From a virus, in IMG/VR virus record IMGVR_UViG_3300024239_000011, positions 80,303 to 144,302 of that record: a stretch of DNA of 64,000 nucleotides. One strand, given 5' to 3'. Under the pieces are notes generated by a model. It was not told the origin of the DNA. It worked only from the letters and a program-made list of their open reading frames with translations, and made no database searches. Positions 853 to 64,000 of the stretch are shown here, one piece after another; the stretch's first letter is position 1; every line of letters begins with the position of its first letter. The position numbers were made by a program, and so were the translations under genes.

Positions 853-946
853 TGGAGGAAAGGGTCGGACTCGAACCGACATACCCCTGCGTTTGCAGGC
901 ACCTGATTTGCACTCAAGGACCGTCGCCTATTCCGGTCACCTTTCC
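853..946 (-). tRNA. type II (long variable arm) tRNA, anticodon GCA (Cys-like), U73
   Basis: 7-bp acceptor GGAAAGG/CCTTTCC, D stem ACC/GGT, anticodon arm CTTGA-GTGCAAA-TCAGG, 21-nt variable arm with CCTGC/GCAGG hairpin, T arm GTCGG-TTCGAGT-CCGAC, encoded CCA. Confidence 0.55.
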
Positions 947-2913: not shown

Positions 2914-2935
2914 GGTCTTTTAGTTGGTCGAGAAT

Positions 2936-3017
2936 GGTGCCGGGTGAGGGACTCGAACCCCCGATGTTTGTATCCCGACTTACGAAGTCGGTGCTGTCGC
3001 CGCTGAGCCAACCCGGC
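2936..3017 (-). tRNA. tRNA-Thr(CGT) with enlarged (~12 nt) variable region
   Basis: acceptor GCCGGGT/ACCCGGC, anticodon arm CCGAC-TTCGTAA-GTCGG, T arm GGGGG-TTCGAGT-CCCTC, CCA encoded; paralog of tRNA at 25116. Confidence 0.6.
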
Positions 3018-3838: not shown

Positions 3839-3905
3839 TGGCGTCCCCGAACCTGCGACCTTCAATTTAGGAGATTGACGCTCTTCCAATCTGAGCTACG
3901 GGGAC
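3839..3905 (-). pseudogene. tRNA-Arg(CCT)-like with deletion of most of the T arm
   Basis: acceptor GTCCCCG/CGGGGAC+G+CCA, D arm GCTC/GAGC, anticodon arm TCAAT-CTCCTAA-ATTGA, but only GCAGGTT remains between variable loop and acceptor 3' strand (66 nt total). Confidence 0.4.
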
Positions 3906-16109: not shown

Positions 16110-16193
16110 GATGGTAGATTGGCGATCCTGAGAGGATTCGAACCCCCCTTTTCAGCATCCGACTACGGTTAAGCGGGTAGAAGCCGCCCCCGG
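16110..16193 (-). tRNA. 84-nt type II tRNA, anticodon unresolved
   Basis: acceptor GATCCTG/CAGGATC+G+CCA, T arm GGGGG-TTCGAAT-CCTCT; D stem GCCG/CGGC with 4-nt loop; anticodon arm ambiguous (possible CTTCTAC loop, anticodon TCT, or Leu/Ser type). Confidence 0.45.
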
Positions 16194-16353
16194 CTACAGG
16201 ATCAAATTTCTATACTTCCACTCCGTTATTTGGTATGGTCGAAGCCTTGGCGGCTACCGCCAAGGACATCTACTCCCAGTTGACCGGGTTTGAAGACCCC
16301 GCAGCTATTTCCGCTTTCTTCGACGGACAGCGCGTCGGTCCTGCCAACTAAAT

Positions 16354-16428
16354 TGGCGCGGGTACGGAGGATCGAACTCCGACTCCTTGGTTGGGAACCA
16401 AGTAGACACCCCAGTATCTTATACCCGC
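16354..16428 (-). tRNA. tRNA-Gly(CCC)
   Basis: acceptor GCGGGTA/TACCCGC, anticodon arm CTTGG-TTCCCAA-CCAAG, T-loop TTCGATC; same backbone as the duplicated Gly(GCC) genes. Confidence 0.7.
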
Positions 16429-16471: not shown

Positions 16472-16548
16472 TGGAGGATCGGGTGGGACTCTCACCCACT
16501 AGGACAAGGTTTGCAATCTTGTGCCTCGGATACTTTGGCTTCCGATCC
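16472..16548 (-). tRNA. tRNA-Cys(GCA)-like with non-canonical T-loop
   Basis: acceptor GGATCGG/CCGATCC, anticodon region CAAGA-TTGCAAA-CCTTG, T arm GTGGG-TGAGAGT-CCCAC. Confidence 0.45.
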
Positions 16549-17436: not shown

Positions 17437-17702
17437 ATGCAGTCCCTCAAAATCATTGATGTGACAATTTTATTTATCACGTAACGATTTTGAGTTCCGC
17501 CTACCACAGTGCGCGTACTCAGCGCATGTCGTGAATTTGGAAACAATGGAGCCAGCAACACCGGGCACCAACCACACATACATTCCGATGTTCACAGACG
17601 CCAGCAAAGCGCAACTGATGCGTAAACTGCTGCTCAAGGCAAATCCCGATGGGAAATTTGCGGTCGCTACTGTTCGTGGCATGAAGCTGCACTTTGAGTA
17701 AA

Positions 17703-17777
17703 TGGCGCGGGTACGGAGAATCGAACTCCGACTCCTTGAGTGGCGCTCAAGTAGACACCCCAGTATCTTATACCCGC
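17703..17777 (-). tRNA. tRNA-Gly(GCC), copy 1 of perfect duplicate
   Basis: GCGGGTATAAGATACTGGGGTGTCTACTTGAGCGCCACTCAAGGAGTCGGAGTTCGATTCTCCGTACCCGCGCCA; identical to 22389..22463. Confidence 0.7.
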
Positions 17778-17855
17778 ATAGAAACGTGCGAGCCTACTGC
17801 GGTGAAGTGGCGGCTGAAGCCCACTCAACGATATAATCGTTGCCGCTTTCCTCAT

Positions 17856-18614: not shown

Positions 18615-18706
18615 TGGCTCCCACTTGAGGTTTCGAACCTCACCCCGCATCGCTGCGAGACTTCCGGTTAACAGCCGGATACCTTCACCAAGCCGGTCCA
18701 GTGGGA
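18615..18706 (-). tRNA. type II (long variable arm) tRNA, anticodon GTT (Asn codons), G73
   Basis: acceptor TCCCACT/AGTGGGA, D ACC/GGT, perfect anticodon arm TCCGG-CTGTTAA-CCGGA, variable arm with CGCA/TGCG hairpin, T arm TGAGG-TTCGAAA-CCTCA, CCA. Confidence 0.55.
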
Positions 18707-19320: not shown

Positions 19321-19410
19321 TGGAGGACACGGTGGGAATTGAACCCACGAGGGGCTTTCGCCCGTGCGATTAAAAGTCGCATGTTCTCAACCAACAAGAA
19401 CGTCGTGTCC
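19321..19410 (-). tRNA. type II tRNA, anticodon TTT (Lys codons), U73
   Basis: acceptor GGACACG/CGTGTCC, D GTTC/GAAC, anticodon arm TGCGA-CTTTTAA-TCGCA, variable arm GGGC-GAAA-GCCC, T arm GTGGG-TTCAATT-CCCAC. Confidence 0.55.
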
Positions 19411-19569: not shown

Positions 19570-19654
19570 TGGAGCGGGTAGGGGGAATCGAACCCCTTTC
19601 CAGTTAAGGGCTTGCTTGGAAGGCAAGTGAGCAATCCATTGCTCGACTACCCGC
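19570..19654 (-). tRNA. type II tRNA, anticodon TCC (Gly codons), U73
   Basis: acceptor GCGGGTA/TACCCGC, D GAGC/GCTC, anticodon arm CTTGC-CTTCCAA-GCAAG, variable hairpin CCCTT/AAGGG, T-loop TTCGATT. Confidence 0.5.
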
Positions 19655-19666
19655 ATATTGTGATGT

Positions 19667-19754
19667 TGGAGACGCGAGTGGGAGTCGAACCCACCTGACC
19701 TTTCGGTACAAACGGTTTTGCAGACCGCCGACTAAACCGCTCATCCATCGCGCC
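19667..19754 (-). tRNA. type II tRNA, anticodon GCA (Cys codons), U73
   Basis: acceptor GGCGCGA/TCGCGTC (G2:U71), anticodon arm GCGGT-CTGCAAA-ACCGT, variable ACC-GAAA-GGT, T arm GTGGG-TTCGACT-CCCAC. Confidence 0.5.
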
Positions 19755-20028: not shown

Positions 20029-20102
20029 TGGTAGTCCCTGGCGGAATCGAACCACCATCAAACGCTTATCGGGCGCTCGCACTACCGTTGTGCTAAGGGA
20101 CT
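20029..20102 (-). tRNA. tRNA-Ile(GAT)-like with C33
   Basis: acceptor AGTCCCT/AGGGACT, anticodon arm AGCGC-CCGATAA-GCGTT, T arm GGTGG-TTCGATT-CCGCC; paralog of 23869. Confidence 0.45.
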
Positions 20103-21423: not shown

Positions 21424-21636
21424 AAGATAGTTTGGAGCCGGGTGCGGGGTTCGCGCCCGCCCAGTCTAAGCCCGCTCTCGCGGTCGAACGCAAAGACTGC
21501 CTCTCGGCACCGGCATAAAAAATTGATAAATGATGACTAGCCCCAACTCATCGCCGCCATCAACGAACCACCATAACAGCAGTCCTTGCCTAACTTGGTC
21601 TACCCCAATAAAACCTAGTTTTATAGCATAGATGCT

Positions 21637-22425
21637 ATGCTAAATACTTGCATGGAACCAAACATTATAAATGAAATACGGTCGAAGCGACGTGATGGAT
21701 ATAGTCTTCAGTGGCTATCTCGTGAATATAATGTCGCAGTTGGCACCATACGATACCATACTAAGGGCATCCTTGTTAATAAAACCCCACATACATTGAT
21801 ACAAGAGAAGCCAATCATCGTACCAATACCATCCGAGGATTGGGCATATTTTTGGGGATTTTATACTGGGGATGGTTGTTTAACGCAAATGACAAGAAGT
21901 TATTCAATAAGTATTTCCTGTGACATCAAGTATGAATATTTGATTGCGAATTATAGTGCTATTCTTTCTGATTTATTCAGACGCGAAGCAAAAATTTACA
22001 AAACCAAACGGAATTGTGCAATCGTTCGTATTCACGGGGTTGACCTACCCAACATTCTTCAGCTACCACCGGGGGCGAAAACTGAAGAGTATAAAGTCCC
22101 AGAGTGGATATTTTCAGATAGAAAATACGCAGTTCAATTTCTAAAAGGTCTTATAGAAACTGACGGAAGTTGTTACCGACGAGATATAACACAATATGGT
22201 GTCATGTTCACTCAAAAAAACAAAACGATATTCGACTATTACAGCACCGCAATGTCTCTTTGTGATTACTCATTTACCAAGAGTAAAGGTAATGCTTACC
22301 AAGCACAGACATCAACCAAAAACGGTGCAAAGGAAATGATTGATGAATTAAGGCTTCATCAAAAGATGCGAACATATTCAAGAAAAAATGGCGCGGGTAC
22401 GGAGAATCGAACTCCGACTCCTTGA
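21637..22425 (+). CDS. LAGLIDADG homing endonuclease
   Basis: two LAGLIDADG motifs (FWGFYTGDGCL and FLKGLIETDGS); AT-rich; 3' end overlaps the duplicated tRNA-Gly(GCC) copy. Confidence 0.8.
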   Translation: MLNTCMEPNIINEIRSKRRDGYSLQWLSREYNVAVGTIRYHTKGILVNKTPHTLIQEKPIIVPIPSEDWAYFWGFYTGDGCLTQMTRSYSISISCDIKYEYLIANYSAILSDLFRREAKIYKTKRNCAIVRIHGVDLPNILQLPPGAKTEEYKVPEWIFSDRKYAVQFLKGLIETDGSCYRRDITQYGVMFTQKNKTIFDYYSTAMSLCDYSFTKSKGNAYQAQTSTKNGAKEMIDELRLHQKMRTYSRKNGAGTENRTPTP

Positions 22426-22463
22426 GTGGCGCTCAAGTAGACACCCCAGTATCTTATACCCGC
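22389..22463 (-). tRNA. tRNA-Gly(GCC), copy 2 of perfect duplicate
   Basis: 75/75 identical to 17703..17777. Confidence 0.7.
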
Positions 22464-22481
22464 ATTGTGTTGGTGTAGAAA

Positions 22482-23320: not shown

Positions 23321-23409
23321 TGGAGAACCGGGTGGGAATCGAACCCACGACGGGCTTTCGCCAGCAGTTTAAGAGACTGTTCCTACCAACCAACAGTAGG
23401 CTCCGGTTC
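23321..23409 (-). tRNA. type II tRNA, anticodon CTT (Lys codons), U73
   Basis: acceptor GAACCGG/CCGGTTC, D CCTA/TAGG, anticodon loop CTCTTAA, variable GGC-GAAA-GCC, T arm GTGGG-TTCGATT-CCCAC; paralog of 19321. Confidence 0.55.
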
Positions 23410-23597: not shown

Positions 23598-23673
23598 TGG
23601 TTGCGGGGGTGGGATTTGCACACCACGACCTCTTGGGTATGAACCAAGTAAGCTACTGCTGCTCTACCCCGCA
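23598..23673 (-). tRNA. tRNA-Met(CAT), copy 1 of 80-nt near-perfect duplicate
   Basis: acceptor TGCGGGG/CCCCGCA, anticodon arm CTTGG-TTCATAC-CCAAG, CCA; copy at 23986. Confidence 0.6.
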
Positions 23674-23704
23674 ATATTACATTGGTCAATCCGCCGTCCC
23701 AAAA

Positions 23705-23985: not shown

Positions 23986-24061
23986 TGGTTGCGGGGGTGG
24001 GATTTGCACACCACGACCTCTTGGGTATGAACCAAGCAAGCTACTGCTGCTCTACCCCGCA
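23986..24061 (-). tRNA. tRNA-Met(CAT), copy 2 of duplicate
   Basis: one mismatch relative to 23598..23673. Confidence 0.6.
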
Positions 24062-24066
24062 ATAAT

Positions 24067-25115: not shown

Positions 25116-25198
25116 TGGCGCCGGATGAGGGACTCGAACCCCCGGTGTTGGTATGCCGCGTTACAAAGGCGGTGCTGTCGCCACTGAGCCAATCCGGC
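25116..25198 (-). tRNA. tRNA-Thr(TGT) with enlarged variable region
   Basis: acceptor GCCGGAT/ATCCGGC, anticodon loop TTTGTAA, T arm GGGGG-TTCGAGT-CCCTC; paralog of 2936..3017. Confidence 0.6.
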
Positions 25199-35673: not shown

Positions 35674-36234
35674 ATGTTGATCATGCTACTAGTGACGTGG
35701 CGCGATGATGACGCGGTGGAGCGTCAGGCAAAAACTCTATTACATCCACGTGGATGGTTTGTCGCAGAGACGTATACACCAGACGAGGATGAGGATGATG
35801 GAACCACGCTATTCCGCATTGAACCGTTCGTCGGACAACGAACAACTGAAATCCCGGACAAGCTTTATCACGCCACCCCTGCACAAAATGTCCCGCGCAT
35901 TCTCAAGCAAGGGCTGATCCCACAACGGGGAAAGCACACCGGAATGTTCGCGGCTACACCAAACCGAATCTATATCGCCAAATCACTTGCCTACGCCGTT
36001 GATATCAAGAATATGCTTCAGAAGCACGATGGCTACAGACAAGACTACGCGATCATCGAGATCGATACGACGAAACTCCGGAAGGGGACGAAATTCTATA
36101 TCGACCCGCAATACCATTCTGGCGTCTACACGACCACGCCTGTTCCACCCGCCGCGTTGCGCGTACTCGGCAATGAGGAAGTGGAACAGTGTCCGGAACC
36201 GGATTTCGACTACGAACTAGCGATGAATGTCTAA
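35674..36234 (+). CDS. kptA: RNA 2'-phosphotransferase (Tpt1/KptA family) with N-terminal extension
   Basis: KLYHATP...GLIPQRGKHTGMFAA...DYAIIEIDTTKLRKGTKFYIDP..GVYTTTPVPP. Confidence 0.7.
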   Translation: MLIMLLVTWRDDDAVERQAKTLLHPRGWFVAETYTPDEDEDDGTTLFRIEPFVGQRTTEIPDKLYHATPAQNVPRILKQGLIPQRGKHTGMFAATPNRIYIAKSLAYAVDIKNMLQKHDGYRQDYAIIEIDTTKLRKGTKFYIDPQYHSGVYTTTPVPPAALRVLGNEEVEQCPEPDFDYELAMNV

Positions 36235-36334: not shown

Positions 36335-36629
36335 TGGATCGGGGAGAGGGATTCGAACCCCCATAAAGTGGACCCTTACCACTTCGACTTTCGCCGCCCT
36401 CTTTCGAGGTTTGTGGTCTGGACTTTATCTTCACCATAGCTTGCGCCGTAGGTGCTGCCCGTCAAGTCTCTACACCTTCCGCTCTCGCGGCTTGGCTCGG
36501 GATTGGCATTTTACAGCGTTCCCCGAATTTGAGCAGTTCTACATCAAAGGTTTCCCTTTAAGCATCCGGTTTTCCTCTGTGTGGGAGGAAGGTAAAAACC
36601 ACTGGTCCTACCGTTAGACGATCCCCGAA
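36335..36629 (-). tRNA. tRNA gene (best fit Gln-UUG; Lys-UUU or Pro-UGG possible) interrupted in the anticodon loop by a ~221-nt group I (IC3-type) intron
   Basis: 5' exon 36596..36629 TCGGGGA-TC-GTC-TAACGGTAG-GAC-C-AGTGG-TTTT; 3' exon 36335..36374 GGT-CCACT-TTAT-GGGGG-TTCGAAT-CCCTC-TCCCCGA-T-CCA; intervening RNA contains GGATGCTTAAAGGGAAACC, AATCCCGAGCCAAGCCG, GGAAGGTGTAGAGACTTGACGGG and AAGATAAAGTCC, matching the conserved core of cyanobacterial/plastid tRNA-Leu(UAA) group I introns as I recall them. Confidence 0.55.
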
Positions 36630-36678: not shown

Positions 36679-37272
36679 TTACCATCGTGTCGGTAACTGA
36701 GCTTCACCCGCAATCAAGGACGGCTCATAGATAATATCCTTCGGGTCATGATCTTTGTACCCAAACCCACGATACTTTTTCAACCGATCAGCCTTGACAT
36801 CACCACCCGGCTTGGATGGACGCAACGTCATAGTCTTATTGTCCCAGAAGAAGTTATCGGTACATATCACTACGCGATTAAACACGTCAAGCGCACCTTG
36901 ACACACCGTCATATCAAACGACTCAAAAATACTCATGGGCGAATCGAAAGTACGTTCGACCAACTGTATACTAACATAGTGATCTTCTCCGATCAGAATG
37001 CTTTCATAGCTAGTGGCGTTGGTACTATTGTAGGCAACTTCCTCACCACCCGCATATTCAGACAAATAATCATTGAATTTTGCATGATCGTTGCTCGACC
37101 GTGTGTAGCAGTCCACATCACCATCTAGAAGATTACGACCAGTTAGAAGCCGAGAAACAAATCCCCCGGCAATCATAACCTCGACCCCACTATCACTGAT
37201 GAACTTGAAAAGTTCTTTAAATGGATAATCATGGGGGTATTTCTGGGTTAGACTGAACAACGGTATGATCAT
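36679..37272 (-). CDS. short paralog of the tRNA-NTase/poly(A) polymerase head domain
   Basis: AGGFVSRLLTG-x-DGDVDCY and FESFDMTVCQGALDV motifs. Confidence 0.55.
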   Translation of the reverse strand: MIIPLFSLTQKYPHDYPFKELFKFISDSGVEVMIAGGFVSRLLTGRNLLDGDVDCYTRSSNDHAKFNDYLSEYAGGEEVAYNSTNATSYESILIGEDHYVSIQLVERTFDSPMSIFESFDMTVCQGALDVFNRVVICTDNFFWDNKTMTLRPSKPGGDVKADRLKKYRGFGYKDHDPKDIIYEPSLIAGEAQLPTRW

Positions 37273-59472: not shown

Positions 59473-60072
59473 GTGACCACCCGGCTCTCTGTGAAAACGG
59501 AGTGTCACGAAATGGAAAATGAGACCGCCCAGAGTGGCGTTACTAAGATTGTCGAGCCTGCTCTTGTTGCACTCGACACCACCAATCTCCCTCAAGAACT
59601 GATCAAACCACTGGCACAGCTTCAGAGCCTCTATGCTCTACGCTCCATGTCGGCTGATGATTGGGTTGAAACTCACGGCTCCGGAACCTTGCGTAAGAAC
59701 AAGCGCATTGGTTTTGCGTGGAAAGCCCAGTACCGCGAAGAACGTGCCGCCTATGAGTTTGGCTGGACGTTTGAAGTTGTCCCTGCCAGTCGGGTGATGT
59801 GGGGTATCCCCTTCACTGAAGGTGATTGTCACGCGGTTACTGAAGCTGGATGGCACATCGAACGCTTCTTCGAGAAGAAAGTGTTTGCCGAAGACTTCTA
59901 CGAAGCCAAGTACATCAAAGTCGAATACCCTGATGGGGCGACCAAAGAAGGTATTGGCATCGTCGTGCGCCAGACCTCGGCCAAATGGGTCGGGGAAGGT
60001 CAGCTTGTCTTCGCCATTGTTGCCGAGTTCGTGCCGGGCAAAGGCTGGAAAGAAGCCGAGAACCCGTTCTAG
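59473..60072 (+). CDS. hypothetical protein
   Basis: 199-aa ORF. Confidence 0.45.
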   Translation: MTTRLSVKTECHEMENETAQSGVTKIVEPALVALDTTNLPQELIKPLAQLQSLYALRSMSADDWVETHGSGTLRKNKRIGFAWKAQYREERAAYEFGWTFEVVPASRVMWGIPFTEGDCHAVTEAGWHIERFFEKKVFAEDFYEAKYIKVEYPDGATKEGIGIVVRQTSAKWVGEGQLVFAIVAEFVPGKGWKEAENPF

Positions 60073-60083
60073 GGAGTCGTGTC

Positions 60084-60599
60084 ATGGAATTTGTCTTTGA
60101 AAAAGGCTTGTTCCCCGACAACTGGTGCTACGTCCGGAACATTTTCATCATCGGCAAGACCAAAAGCGCCAAGAGCGCCTTGGCTGACTGGATTGAGACG
60201 AAATATCCGGAATTCTGCCGGGTTCAGGCTTCGGAATGGATCAAGGCAGAATGCCCGTGGGAAAGCTACCAGTTGTTAGAGGACAGCTATCCTGAGTATG
60301 TGAAGTTCCTCAGTCATCTGAGCGCAAAACGTCTCAAGGAGAACCCAGACGCTTGCATCGACTACATCAAGCGGAAGTATCGGATTGAAAACGGTATGTA
60401 CGCAATTGAGGGCATTCGGAACCCTCGCGACTTCATGTCGTTGTTTGACCCTGAACGGGACATGGTGCTTTTCTTGAGCAACCCCGGTCATGAGTTCGAC
60501 GGCAATTTCGATGACGGTATCGAGGTGATCAAGGGTTATGTGGAATGGCTGGCGAAACACATGCTGTTCGCCAATTTTGAGGGGGTGTTGGTAAAATGA
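60084..60599 (+). CDS. hypothetical protein
   Basis: 171-aa ORF. Confidence 0.45.
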   Translation: MEFVFEKGLFPDNWCYVRNIFIIGKTKSAKSALADWIETKYPEFCRVQASEWIKAECPWESYQLLEDSYPEYVKFLSHLSAKRLKENPDACIDYIKRKYRIENGMYAIEGIRNPRDFMSLFDPERDMVLFLSNPGHEFDGNFDDGIEVIKGYVEWLAKHMLFANFEGVLVK

Positions 60600-61114
60600 T
60601 TCGCTATGATTTGCCGAAGCCGATCAAAGCTGTGATCGCGGAAATGTATCTCTACGACATGGACGAAACCAAGACTGCCTGGGTGCCCTGTAAGGTGTTC
60701 GCCATCGACGCCTACCCAGGAGAAGCCCTGACTGTCACCGTCCTGCTCGATGATGGGTCGATGTTCAACTACATTCCGTTGGACGCGGTAATGACCAAGG
60801 CACCAGAGGAAGGCGCGTTCCTGCTCCCCTACACCGATCTGGTCTACAACAACTGCATTGGTGGCAAGGTGGCTGTCACCGTCCACGAGGTACTAAATCA
60901 GCCGGTGTGGGCTTATTTCAAGAACAAGAACCTCTGGATGGGTGCCGAGTTCGTCTGTTGCTTGGATTTCTATGAGGGCAACGACCTGATGAACTTCTTG
61001 ATCTTGGAGAGCGGGCAGTTTGCGGCACTCCCCAACCACAAGATCAAGTTCGGAGCGAACGCACCCAAGGAATTGCCCCAGTACAAAAAACTGCGGAAGG
61101 TCTGGAAGGTCTAA
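60596..61114 (+). CDS. hypothetical protein
   Basis: ATGA overlap. Confidence 0.45.
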   Translation: MIRYDLPKPIKAVIAEMYLYDMDETKTAWVPCKVFAIDAYPGEALTVTVLLDDGSMFNYIPLDAVMTKAPEEGAFLLPYTDLVYNNCIGGKVAVTVHEVLNQPVWAYFKNKNLWMGAEFVCCLDFYEGNDLMNFLILESGQFAALPNHKIKFGANAPKELPQYKKLRKVWKV

Positions 61115-61142
61115 AATGAAAGGGCGAGGATTACCCGCCCTT

Positions 61143-61481
61143 TCAAATAACCGGTTCACCGAGGATTTGCACAACTTCCAAAATCGCCGGGTCCACAAAC
61201 GCCGTGAAATAATCATCCGCGCCATTCATGATGTGGACCGTATCATCAATGAACGTAACCGTGGGATTACCATCAATGATGGTTGGAATGATTCGAATGG
61301 CGACCCGTTCCGGTGCCATTACCGCCATGCCCTTTTCATTCTCTTTGGGGTCGGCGGCGATATACGCCAGCGACCCCACCTTCGGGGTGTGGTTGCGCGC
61401 GACCGGATCACGGGTCGTTATGCGAAGAATCGTTCCGGCGTCCCATTTCATGACAACCCCCCTTCTAATGCTGATATTCAC
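61143..61481 (-). CDS. hypothetical protein
   Basis: 112-aa ORF. Confidence 0.4.
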   Translation of the reverse strand: MNISIRRGVVMKWDAGTILRITTRDPVARNHTPKVGSLAYIAADPKENEKGMAVMAPERVAIRIIPTIIDGNPTVTFIDDTVHIMNGADDYFTAFVDPAILEVVQILGEPVI

Positions 61482-62007
61482 CGTTCCAAACCGGAATGTC
61501 GCTAATTTTCATGCGCAGAACCGGGCGACTATCCAACAATTCTTTGGCAGCGATACGACGAGCCGAAAACTGATCCTTCTTGCCAATATGGTTCAGGTCG
61601 TAAAGCGTGCGGTAGCTACCGTTCGGAATGAAAAACGGATCGAAGCCAAAGGCATCGGACGGGGCATTGTCAGTCTTAACCAGCGTGCCCGTGATCACGC
61701 CCCTATAAACGTGAATGTGTTCACCGTCATTGTAGCCGAGCGAAACGACCCACTGGGCGTCTTTGGCAGTTTTGATCTGGTTTAGCTTCCAGCGAATGTC
61801 AACGACTTCTTCGCCGTCGATGACAAGGATGGTGTCTTCGACAACCATATCCTTGCCAGCGTCAAGAGCCTTGTAGAGAATGACCTGATCGGGAGTGCCT
61901 TGGACTTCCTTTAGGTCCAAGCCCTTCTTGATCTGAATGTCAAGACCGAGGCGCCGAAATTCGGCAAGCTTCTTGTCATTGGACGAAACCAGATACATGT
62001 CAGACAT
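61465..62007 (-). CDS. rdgB: Ham1/RdgB-family non-canonical NTP pyrophosphatase (ITPase)
   Basis: LVSSNDKKLAEF N-terminus, GFDPFFIP...SARRIA C-terminal motif. Confidence 0.7.
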   Translation of the reverse strand: MSDMYLVSSNDKKLAEFRRLGLDIQIKKGLDLKEVQGTPDQVILYKALDAGKDMVVEDTILVIDGEEVVDIRWKLNQIKTAKDAQWVVSLGYNDGEHIHVYRGVITGTLVKTDNAPSDAFGFDPFFIPNGSYRTLYDLNHIGKKDQFSARRIAAKELLDSRPVLRMKISDIPVWNGEYQH

Positions 62008-63558: not shown

Positions 63559-64000
63559 ATGGACGAAGAAGCGATTCCTGACCTGAAAATGGGTATCTAC
63601 AAGGGGTACTCCCGCATCAATCTCGGTTCAAAAGTGGCGGACCACATCATGAAAGTCGGTCCATATGTCGCGATCAGTGGGCGATGGTCGGAAGGCTTCT
63701 ATCTTACCCCAAGTGCCGCGAAGATCGACAACATGCCGTCGCAGCGGAAAGTGATGGATTCGCCCGGAACCAACGGCGGGCGTGCGTTCCCCCTGTTCGT
63801 GGATTTCAACTCCCGAACCCTTGGTGATCTTCCTTTCACCCGGCTCAGTGCCACACCAATTCAGGTGGAGTTTCAAAAGGATGGGCGCCTGTGGCTGCGT
63901 ACCGATATCCTTAACCTGAAGTCATTGGACATCGAGCCGTCTGCCCCCGCAGAACCGGTGGCAAAACCTGCCGATACCGTCGTGCGAGTGCAGCGTACCC
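63559..64000 (+). CDS. hypothetical protein (partial; runs off window end)
   Basis: GGAGG RBS then ATG; open to end of window. Confidence 0.45.
   Translation, partial: MDEEAIPDLKMGIYKGYSRINLGSKVADHIMKVGPYVAISGRWSEGFYLTPSAAKIDNMPSQRKVMDSPGTNGGRAFPLFVDFNSRTLGDLPFTRLSATPIQVEFQKDGRLWLRTDILNLKSLDIEPSAPAEPVAKPADTVVRVQRT

Follow-up and report, generated by a model that had tools for sequence, protein, structure and literature searches.

A predicted LAGLIDADG endonuclease gene ends inside a duplicated tRNA-like element

We analyzed a 64,000-nucleotide (nt) stretch of viral DNA (IMG/VR record IMGVR_UViG_3300024239_000011, positions 80,303 to 144,302; hereafter the window), in which a free-standing LAGLIDADG homing-endonuclease gene is placed between the transfer RNA (tRNA)-like genes of a tRNA array in a very large phage-like genome. 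ARAGORN called 39 tRNAs in the window, all on the minus strand, and several more, also minus, were found by Rfam alone; the endonuclease open reading frame (ORF) lies on the opposite strand, antisense to the neighboring tRNAs. It ends within one of two identical copies, A and B, of a tRNA-Gly(GCC)-like element. An ENA metagenomic contig of 869,618 bp (ERZ27245855 k141_178484; L015, L019 and L024 in our locus numbering) contains the window sequence at 100% identity and carries phage-like genes and dozens of tRNAs; if it is one phage genome, it exceeds to our knowledge every phage genome known. The features of the locus, together with a paralog of the enzyme elsewhere in the same genome, are as follows.

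21637..22425, plus strand: free-standing LAGLIDADG homing-endonuclease ORF, 262 amino acids (aa), assigned by Pfam match, predicted fold and homologs
21844..21876, plus strand: LAGLIDADG motif 1, AYFWGFYTGDG; D79 invariant in the family alignment
22141..22167, plus strand: LAGLIDADG motif 2, LKGLIETDG; E174, D176 and G177 invariant in the family alignment
22390..22425, plus strand: non-native C-terminal tail GAGTENRTPTP and stop codon, encoded by the tRNA antisense strand; predicted local distance difference test (pLDDT) score 53-55
22389..22463, minus strand: tRNA-Gly(GCC)-like copy B, 75 nt, with encoded CCA, C33 and G73
17703..17777, minus strand: tRNA-Gly(GCC)-like copy A, identical to copy B; no endonuclease gene or remnant adjoining
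16354..16428, minus strand: tRNA-Gly(CCC), the third paralog, 89% identical; canonical loop TTCCCAA
8001..8825 of L015, ~3 kb past window position 64000: paralog P0002, 248 aa, same genome and same LAGLIDADG family

An earlier reading of the bare sequence (the original prediction) had described the ORF as AT-rich with two clean motifs, and both properties held: its guanine-plus-cytosine (GC) content is 37.5% against 48.6% for the window, and the two motifs lie at the positions listed above. Pfam LAGLIDADG_3 matched the ORF with 26.1 bits (E = 1e-5), above the curated cut-off of 22.5 bits. The JGI and ENA gene calls start at the second ATG (21652) and give a 257-aa product. An exhaustive HMMER search returned 645 homologs. 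In a 16-sequence family alignment, every member keeps the GDG and ETDG residues of the two motifs, including the motif-terminal acidic residues D79 and D176. The closest homologs share 34-40% identity, a length of ~250 aa and the same architecture. A word-indexed protein search returned the protein alone, and a profile search contributed little more. No family for the protein was found in PHROGs or NCBIfam, domain searches gave no GIY-YIG match, and no second LAGLIDADG gene or remnant was found elsewhere in the 64-kb window.

The AlphaFold2 (AF2) model of the protein has a pLDDT of 90.5. It comprises an N-terminal three-helix helix-turn-helix domain (residues ~8-41) and a double LAGLIDADG core (residues 67-247), joined by a linker modeled with low confidence. 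The core is built from two alpha-beta-beta-alpha-beta-beta-alpha halves in tandem, in the order of elements expected for LAGLIDADG endonucleases. The best Foldseek matches in the PDB, at a probability of 1.00, were I-DmoI, I-Tsp061I, I-AniI, I-SceI and intein endonucleases, and a profile search against PDB sequences also matched LAGLIDADG endonucleases. Judged by its predicted fold and its conserved acidic motif residues, ORF 21637..22425 is an intact double-motif LAGLIDADG endonuclease gene, whose product would be expected to make a double-strand cut at a long (~18-24 bp) specific site, as LAGLIDADG homing endonucleases do.

Two small hairpins lie at 21600..21650 (plus strand), just 5' of and spanning the first ATG of the ORF: AAAACCTAGTTTT, plus a stem formed by the inverted repeat in ATAGCATAGATGCTAT, with a folding z-score of only -1.7. 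An 8-bp hairpin is also found directly before the ATG of paralog P0002. The hairpins at the start of the ORF could provide translational control.

As had been predicted, the ORF ends 37 nt inside 22389..22463: its stop codon is 22423..22425, and its overlap with the minus-strand tRNA-Gly-like element is 22389..22425. The alignment of homologs ends at about residue 250, equivalent to window ~22377-22386, at the 3' end of the tRNA, and relatives terminate 1-4 residues past a conserved K-x-R-x-Y-x-Y motif. Beyond this point, the tail was modeled by AF2 as disordered (pLDDT 53-55). Because homology stops at the tRNA end and the tail is modeled with low confidence, we take the overlap to be a read-through tail and not a conserved part of the enzyme; on the alignment and the predicted structure, the 37-nt overlap of ORF and tRNA is a junction scar.

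Copies A and B are 100% identical over their 75 nt. The full block of identity is 80 nt (22386..22465 equal to 17700..17779) and ends abruptly on both sides, and we detected no similarity of the flanks beyond it, in agreement with the earlier view that the tRNA alone had been duplicated between differing flanks. Such a tRNA-only duplication is not unique to copies A and B, as the array holds several tRNA paralog families; duplications of this kind with unrelated flanks recur in families D1, D2, D4, D5 and D7.

The identity of the two copies was thus as the original prediction had it, but calling them tRNAs needs qualification. ARAGORN called neither copy as a tRNA, and neither was listed by a whole-window Rfam scan run at the gathering threshold with fast filters; a local cmscan of the 75-nt element gave RF00005 with 43.5 bits (E = 2.4e-8; gathering score 29). 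The cloverleaf is regular, but the anticodon loop, GCGCCAC, carries the anticodon GCC with C rather than U at position 33. G32 and C38 can pair, and the minimum-free-energy fold has a 6-bp stem and a 5-nt loop. The discriminator is G, compared with U in the other Gly tRNAs of the window, and the differences between copies A/B and the tRNA-Gly(CCC) at 16354..16428 are almost confined to the anticodon stem-loop. The element therefore lacks the U33 loop and the gene-finder detection of a canonical tRNA, and we term the copies tRNA-Gly(GCC)-like because of their noncanonical anticodon loop, their non-U discriminator and the missing ARAGORN call. C33 also occurs in tRNA-Ile(GAT) at 20029..20102 (minus strand) and in a tRNA-Ala(GGC) of the allele without the endonuclease gene (L022 1263..1339; see below), so that this loop is not unique in the genome. 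The C33/G32-C38 loop of copy B might have a role of its own, for example in a nuclease-resistant or decoy tRNA.

Co-occurrence of the endonuclease gene and copy B across alleles

Both junctions of the arrangement are crossed with identical sequence by independent assemblies from at least five samples (JGI 3300035670 and 3300034072; ENA ERZ4201046 and ERZ27245855; Logan SRR7690231), and we therefore rule out a misassembly caused by the repeat. Scans with exact patterns from the duplicated tRNA gave no match in IMG/VR (three patterns) or in a metagenome contig collection (one pattern), so the scanned collections evidently do not hold contigs of this genome. Among INPHARED phages, there were no close relatives, and the sole match was a 75-nt tRNA hit to Synechococcus phage S-SRM01. 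The contigs used for comparison were located via the neighboring HNH protein that they encode. The gene is carried by the window and by L001-L004, L019, L020 and L023, and is missing from L021 (JGI 3300034073, 3285 bp) and L022 (Logan SRR10854513, 1503 bp). Sample 3300034073 holds both alleles, with the endonuclease gene in L004 and without it in L021. None of the compared alleles has the endonuclease gene without copy B, or copy B without the gene. Relatives with both tRNA-Gly copies and no LAGLIDADG gene, which would have spoken against the original prediction, were not seen; L021 and L022 are without copy B. The features that distinguish the alleles in the window are as follows.

21607..22458, no strand: occupied-allele-specific segment, 852 nt, comprising copy B from nt 6, the endonuclease gene and ~30 nt upstream
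21596..21606, minus strand: tRNA-Ala(GGC) stump, GGGGTAG (5' acceptor strand) joined to ACCA (discriminator and CCA)
22469..22476, no strand: left-flank marker single-nucleotide polymorphisms (SNPs), the only 2 differences in 1169 nt, 6 and 13 nt from the tRNA-Gly 5' end
21517..21588, no strand: right-flank variable tract, 5 SNPs and 21 deleted nt relative to the empty allele

L022 and L021 are 99.8-99.9% identical to the window down to 22459, where the shared GCGGG marks the 5' end of tRNA-Gly, and then diverge. L022 continues with an 85-nt tRNA-Gly(GCC) (Rfam 52.8 bits) whose loop is the canonical TTGCCAT, whose discriminator is U and whose variable arm is long, followed by a 13-nt spacer and a 77-nt tRNA-Ala(GGC) with G3:U70 (Rfam 57.3 bits), and rejoins the window at 21599 (ACCAAGTTAGG...). 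The order in the empty allele is tRNA-Ala(GGC), canonical 85-nt tRNA-Gly(GCC), 13-nt spacer and a second tRNA-Ala(GGC). The occupied allele has tRNA-Ala(GGC), 75-nt copy B and the endonuclease gene, and only 11 nt of the second tRNA-Ala remain as a stump. Both tRNAs of the empty allele outscore copy B (43.5 bits) in Rfam. The counterpart of the 852-nt occupied segment is only 93 nt, consisting of nt 6-85 of the canonical tRNA-Gly(GCC) and the 13-nt spacer. The canonical 85-nt tRNA-Gly is absent from the ~76 kb of readable sequence of the gene-carrying genome.

The 66-nt body of the second tRNA-Ala (L022 1270..1335) is precisely deleted in the occupied allele, and of the 11 positions of the stump, 10 agree with the intact gene and the bases upstream of it. 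This retained stump places an intact tRNA-Ala in the ancestry of the occupied allele. Differences in the flanks are concentrated at the junctions: those on the right all fall within ~85 nt, with identity resuming from 21516 to the end of L022, and those on the left are the two marker SNPs. In sequence, this clustering is like a co-conversion tract.

Adjacent to the right-flank tract, 21432..21516 (minus strand) is a GC-rich 85-nt element with a CCA end and a loose cloverleaf-like fold, conserved in the empty allele. It was considered as a tRNA and dropped, being unsupported by Rfam, ARAGORN or folding (z-score -0.55); it may be a decayed tRNA. The ends of two further contigs, L025 and L026 (both at 17729), were weighed as a sign that the alleles coexist in SRR10854513 and rejected as too indirect.

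Relatives of the enzyme are encoded beside tRNA genes

We surveyed the loci of metagenomic and genomic relatives of the enzyme for tRNA adjacency (L028-L170). The closest paralog is P0002, with 40% identity by HMMER search and 37% by alignment; its gene stops 1 nt short of a tRNA-Pro(TGG) in the same orientation, and a terminator-like hairpin lies behind that tRNA. A co-oriented tRNA-Pro was present in 7 of the 8 loci of the closest metagenomic relatives, as well as in 8 of the 10 best genome loci (Abditibacteriota, Armatimonadota and Chloroflexota). This tRNA-Pro (CGG, TGG or GGG) starts between -24 and +26 nt from the relatives' stop codon, and three of the ORFs end inside the tRNA. The flanking genes are unrelated between the tRNA-Pro-linked groups, so that the linkage occurs in several independent contexts.

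In a more distant subfamily of ~200 aa, mostly from Patescibacteria, the tRNA precedes the gene: most loci have a tRNA-Leu(CAA) directly 5' of the ORF and in its orientation, and often the ATG lies 0-7 nt past the 3' end of this tRNA. There were exceptions to the tRNA rule: the homologs P0015 and P0151 adjoin integrases and have no tRNA in the locus. IMG/VR yielded four distant loci only, none with tRNAs. Furthermore, the counts within phyla are inflated by vertically inherited synteny, and we therefore treat the adjacency to tRNA edges as a lead and not as demonstrated target specificity. The literature that we searched describes endonuclease genes inside tRNA and rRNA introns, and SegB beside tRNAs, but we found in it no account of LAGLIDADG genes that directly abut tRNA ends. 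The family-wide position of these genes at the very edge of tRNA-Pro and tRNA-Leu(CAA) genes thus appears to be undescribed so far.

A proposed break-repair history of the locus and its alternatives

Starting from the directly observed intact gene, presence/absence alleles, exact boundaries, flank gradient and family-wide tRNA adjacency, we consider it fairly probable that a selfish free-standing LAGLIDADG gene invaded one inter-tRNA site by break repair, with collateral loss of tRNAs and a patch from a paralog. That the enzyme cuts, what it cuts and in which order the events took place are what we infer. An endonuclease from a co-infecting, gene-carrying genome would have cut the empty allele in or beside the tRNA-Gly/spacer/tRNA-Ala segment, and both tRNAs would have been removed through resection. 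During repair, the endonuclease gene would have been copied in with adjoining donor sequence, and this copying of donor sequence beside the gene would account for the clustering of flank differences at the junctions. Via the shared 5' GCGGG, copy A, the other tRNA-Gly(GCC)-like sequence of the array, or its counterpart in the donor would have served to patch the left side. The native stop codon would have been lost at the AAA/tRNA boundary, leaving an ORF that runs 11 extra codons through the antisense tRNA to the first TGA; the 37-nt overlap would follow from this loss. The occupied allele and copy A would be immune, since the target is no longer present there.

Several points weigh against this history. 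The target is guessed solely from the sequence lost in the occupied allele, and the whole empty allele is spanned by one contig only (L022). The polarity is fixed only in part, as the tRNA-Gly swap could predate the endonuclease gene, and the perfect identity of copies A and B could stem from later gene conversion. The left boundary shares just 5-7 nt (ATGCGGG), which is too short for ordinary homologous recombination, so that the left patch needs microhomology, template switching or a donor with the same arrangement. The gene is antisense to its tRNA neighbor, unlike all relatives examined, and a search for promoter or terminator consensus around it gave nothing above shuffled sequence.

The original prediction had read the locus as a footprint of endonuclease homing that carried a tRNA segment or as an enzyme that targets the tRNA-Gly gene. 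The former survives as a mobile cassette with a co-transferred tRNA copy, given that L021 and L022 are without both and that the differences cluster at the junctions. The latter, with 17703..17777 as the target and copy A as a site not yet invaded, would fit a gene that adjoins a copy of this sequence and an enzyme whose relatives sit flush with tRNA genes, and SegB is a precedent for the recognition of tRNA sequence (PMC2330249). Yet copy A is intact and unoccupied beside an apparently intact endonuclease gene in every assembly, no LAGLIDADG remnant was found next to it, and the tRNAs lost from the occupied allele are other ones. Given that copy A has the very sequence of copy B and yet stays unoccupied in a genome that carries the gene, cleavage of copy A by the enzyme is unlikely, and we regard it as an improbable target. 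The replaced segment of 85-nt tRNA-Gly, spacer and tRNA-Ala is the better target candidate, as these are the sequences lost in the occupied allele. We also judge it unlikely that the insertion and the tRNA copy are unrelated and that the ORF merely runs to the next stop codon: the array does hold several tRNA paralog families (one pair 99% identical and 388 nt apart), and ~9 ORFs with HNH or HNH-associated domains occur in the 64 kb, but such a coincidence sits badly with an alternative allele that is without both the endonuclease gene and copy B, with an 80-nt identity block that ends exactly where the homology of the endonuclease family ends, and with flank differences clustered at the junctions.

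The tRNA linkage could instead be functional, with the protein a domesticated LAGLIDADG DNA- or RNA-binding factor (WhiA- or maturase-like) that acts on tRNA expression or processing. An N-terminal helix-turn-helix domain is present, WhiA structures are among the Foldseek fold matches, one homolog is annotated as "Predicted transcriptional regulator", and adjacency to tRNAs is strict across phyla. WhiA has lost the metal-binding aspartates of LAGLIDADG enzymes, whereas both are invariant in this family; moreover, the presence/absence polymorphism in near-identical genomes, the low GC content, the antisense orientation and the loss of two good tRNAs from the occupied allele with no function gained all run counter to domestication, to which we give little credence. 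Lastly, the window allele could be ancestral, its cassette having later been replaced by a tRNA-Gly/tRNA-Ala pair from another phage. Only two allele states are known, and the way in which flank differences cluster would look alike for either direction; the precise 7+4-nt tRNA-Ala stump, on the other hand, is readily understood as the product of a deletion but hardly as a precursor, which makes this reverse polarity very improbable.

The preferred history of invasion by break repair could be extended to the family. It is conceivable, though we hold it only tentatively, that this LAGLIDADG_3 clade consists of homing endonucleases specialized on the outer edges of tRNAs, and that the window copy moved to a tRNA pair new to it, where two tRNAs were destroyed and a patch from a paralog was left behind. 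Processing of tRNA ends would render an insertion at the edge harmless, and tRNA edges may thus be a third "safe harbor" besides introns and inteins.

Wider context of the tRNA array

The ~9 ORFs with HNH or HNH-associated domains are scattered among the tRNAs of the window, which also encodes tail-fiber and baseplate-like proteins, a class I aminoacyl-tRNA synthetase, a flotillin and a group I intron. The remaining features are listed below.

853..946, 2935..3017, 18615..18706, 19321..19410, 19570..19654, 19667..19754, 23321..23409 and 25116..25198: long tRNAs
36395..36598, minus strand: group I intron, Rfam 52.1 bits

CCA is encoded in all tRNAs of the window. The Cys, Asn, Lys, Gly and Thr tRNAs, which are normally short, are often 83-94 nt here, with extra or long variable arms, and several of the long tRNAs score higher with the tRNA-Sec model than with the tRNA model. 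At 16120..16203 (minus strand), ARAGORN called a tRNA with an 8-nt anticodon loop and the four-base anticodon CTTA, which could be frameshift- or stop-suppressor-like or a degenerate gene. The tRNAs found by Rfam and missed by ARAGORN include 3842..3905, 16475..16548, and 23598..23676 and 23986..24064 (both minus strand), the last two being a 99% identical pair 388 nt apart. The group I intron lies downstream of the minus-strand ORF 36679..37272, which has a weak nucleotidyltransferase match (DUF2204); on its other side, the opposite-strand ORF 35674..36234 has a sub-threshold match to the Tpt1/KptA RNA 2'-phosphotransferase. Elsewhere in the genome, a JGI contig from the same sample series (L016) aligned with window 59610..61651 at 99.3% identity in one stretch and 87.6% over the adjacent 2 kb, a contrast that, in sequence, indicates mosaic strain variation.

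Comparison with known systems and significance

In function, the closest known case is SegB of phage T4, encoded in a tRNA cluster. SegB recognizes a T-psi-C motif of tRNA and promotes the inheritance of the tRNA region (PMC2330249), and it can amplify a tRNA-containing segment (PMC13096335). Like T4/T6 SegB, the gene described here is a free-standing endonuclease gene within a phage tRNA array, close relatives are without it and have a different neighboring tRNA content, and markers of the flanking tRNA region are inherited with it. By analogy, the gene probably works like SegB. It is not a member of the SegB family, however: SegB is a GIY-YIG enzyme, and ours is a LAGLIDADG enzyme with an N-terminal helix-turn-helix. 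Also unlike the SegB system, the gene-carrying allele has fewer and lower-scoring tRNAs than the empty allele, and the extra tRNA copy is dispersed, 4.7 kb away, and not amplified in tandem.

The predicted enzyme resembles the monomeric double-motif enzymes I-DmoI, I-Tsp061I, I-AniI and I-SceI in its two motifs, whose acidic residues are conserved, in the size of its core (~180 aa) and in its predicted fold. These enzymes are intron- or intein-encoded, whereas the window enzyme is free-standing; it also differs from them in its extra N-terminal helix-turn-helix, and identity to the group is just 10-20%. Other free-standing phage endonuclease genes, such as the T4 seg and mob genes, replace or adjoin conserved genes, and nuclease genes have been reported to occupy the boundaries of genetic exchange between bacteriophages (PMC10448857). 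The window gene likewise lies at a conserved/variable boundary with a gradient of flank divergence. The window enzyme is of a different nuclease family, and a neighboring tRNA has been replaced by an intragenomic paralog. Endonuclease genes, LAGLIDADG or other, in group I introns of bacterial tRNA genes (PMC13011429) share with our clade the use of tRNA genes as conserved landing sites; those genes are inside introns in the anticodon loop, whereas members of the window clade directly abut the 5' or 3' end of the tRNA from outside, and the LAGLIDADG locus showed no sign of an intron.

Free-standing homing endonucleases shape phage genomes, and the remodeling of tRNA content by SegB, recently shown, matters for the evasion of tRNA-targeting defenses. 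At the present locus, the proposed invasion would have replaced two good tRNAs with an intragenomic paralog, and the natural allele pair, with its base-precise boundaries, offers a concrete substrate for a LAGLIDADG enzyme. If the tRNA adjacency of the family reflects target specificity, tRNA edges would be a new insertion niche for homing endonucleases, and the family would be a set of natural enzymes with tRNA-gene targets.

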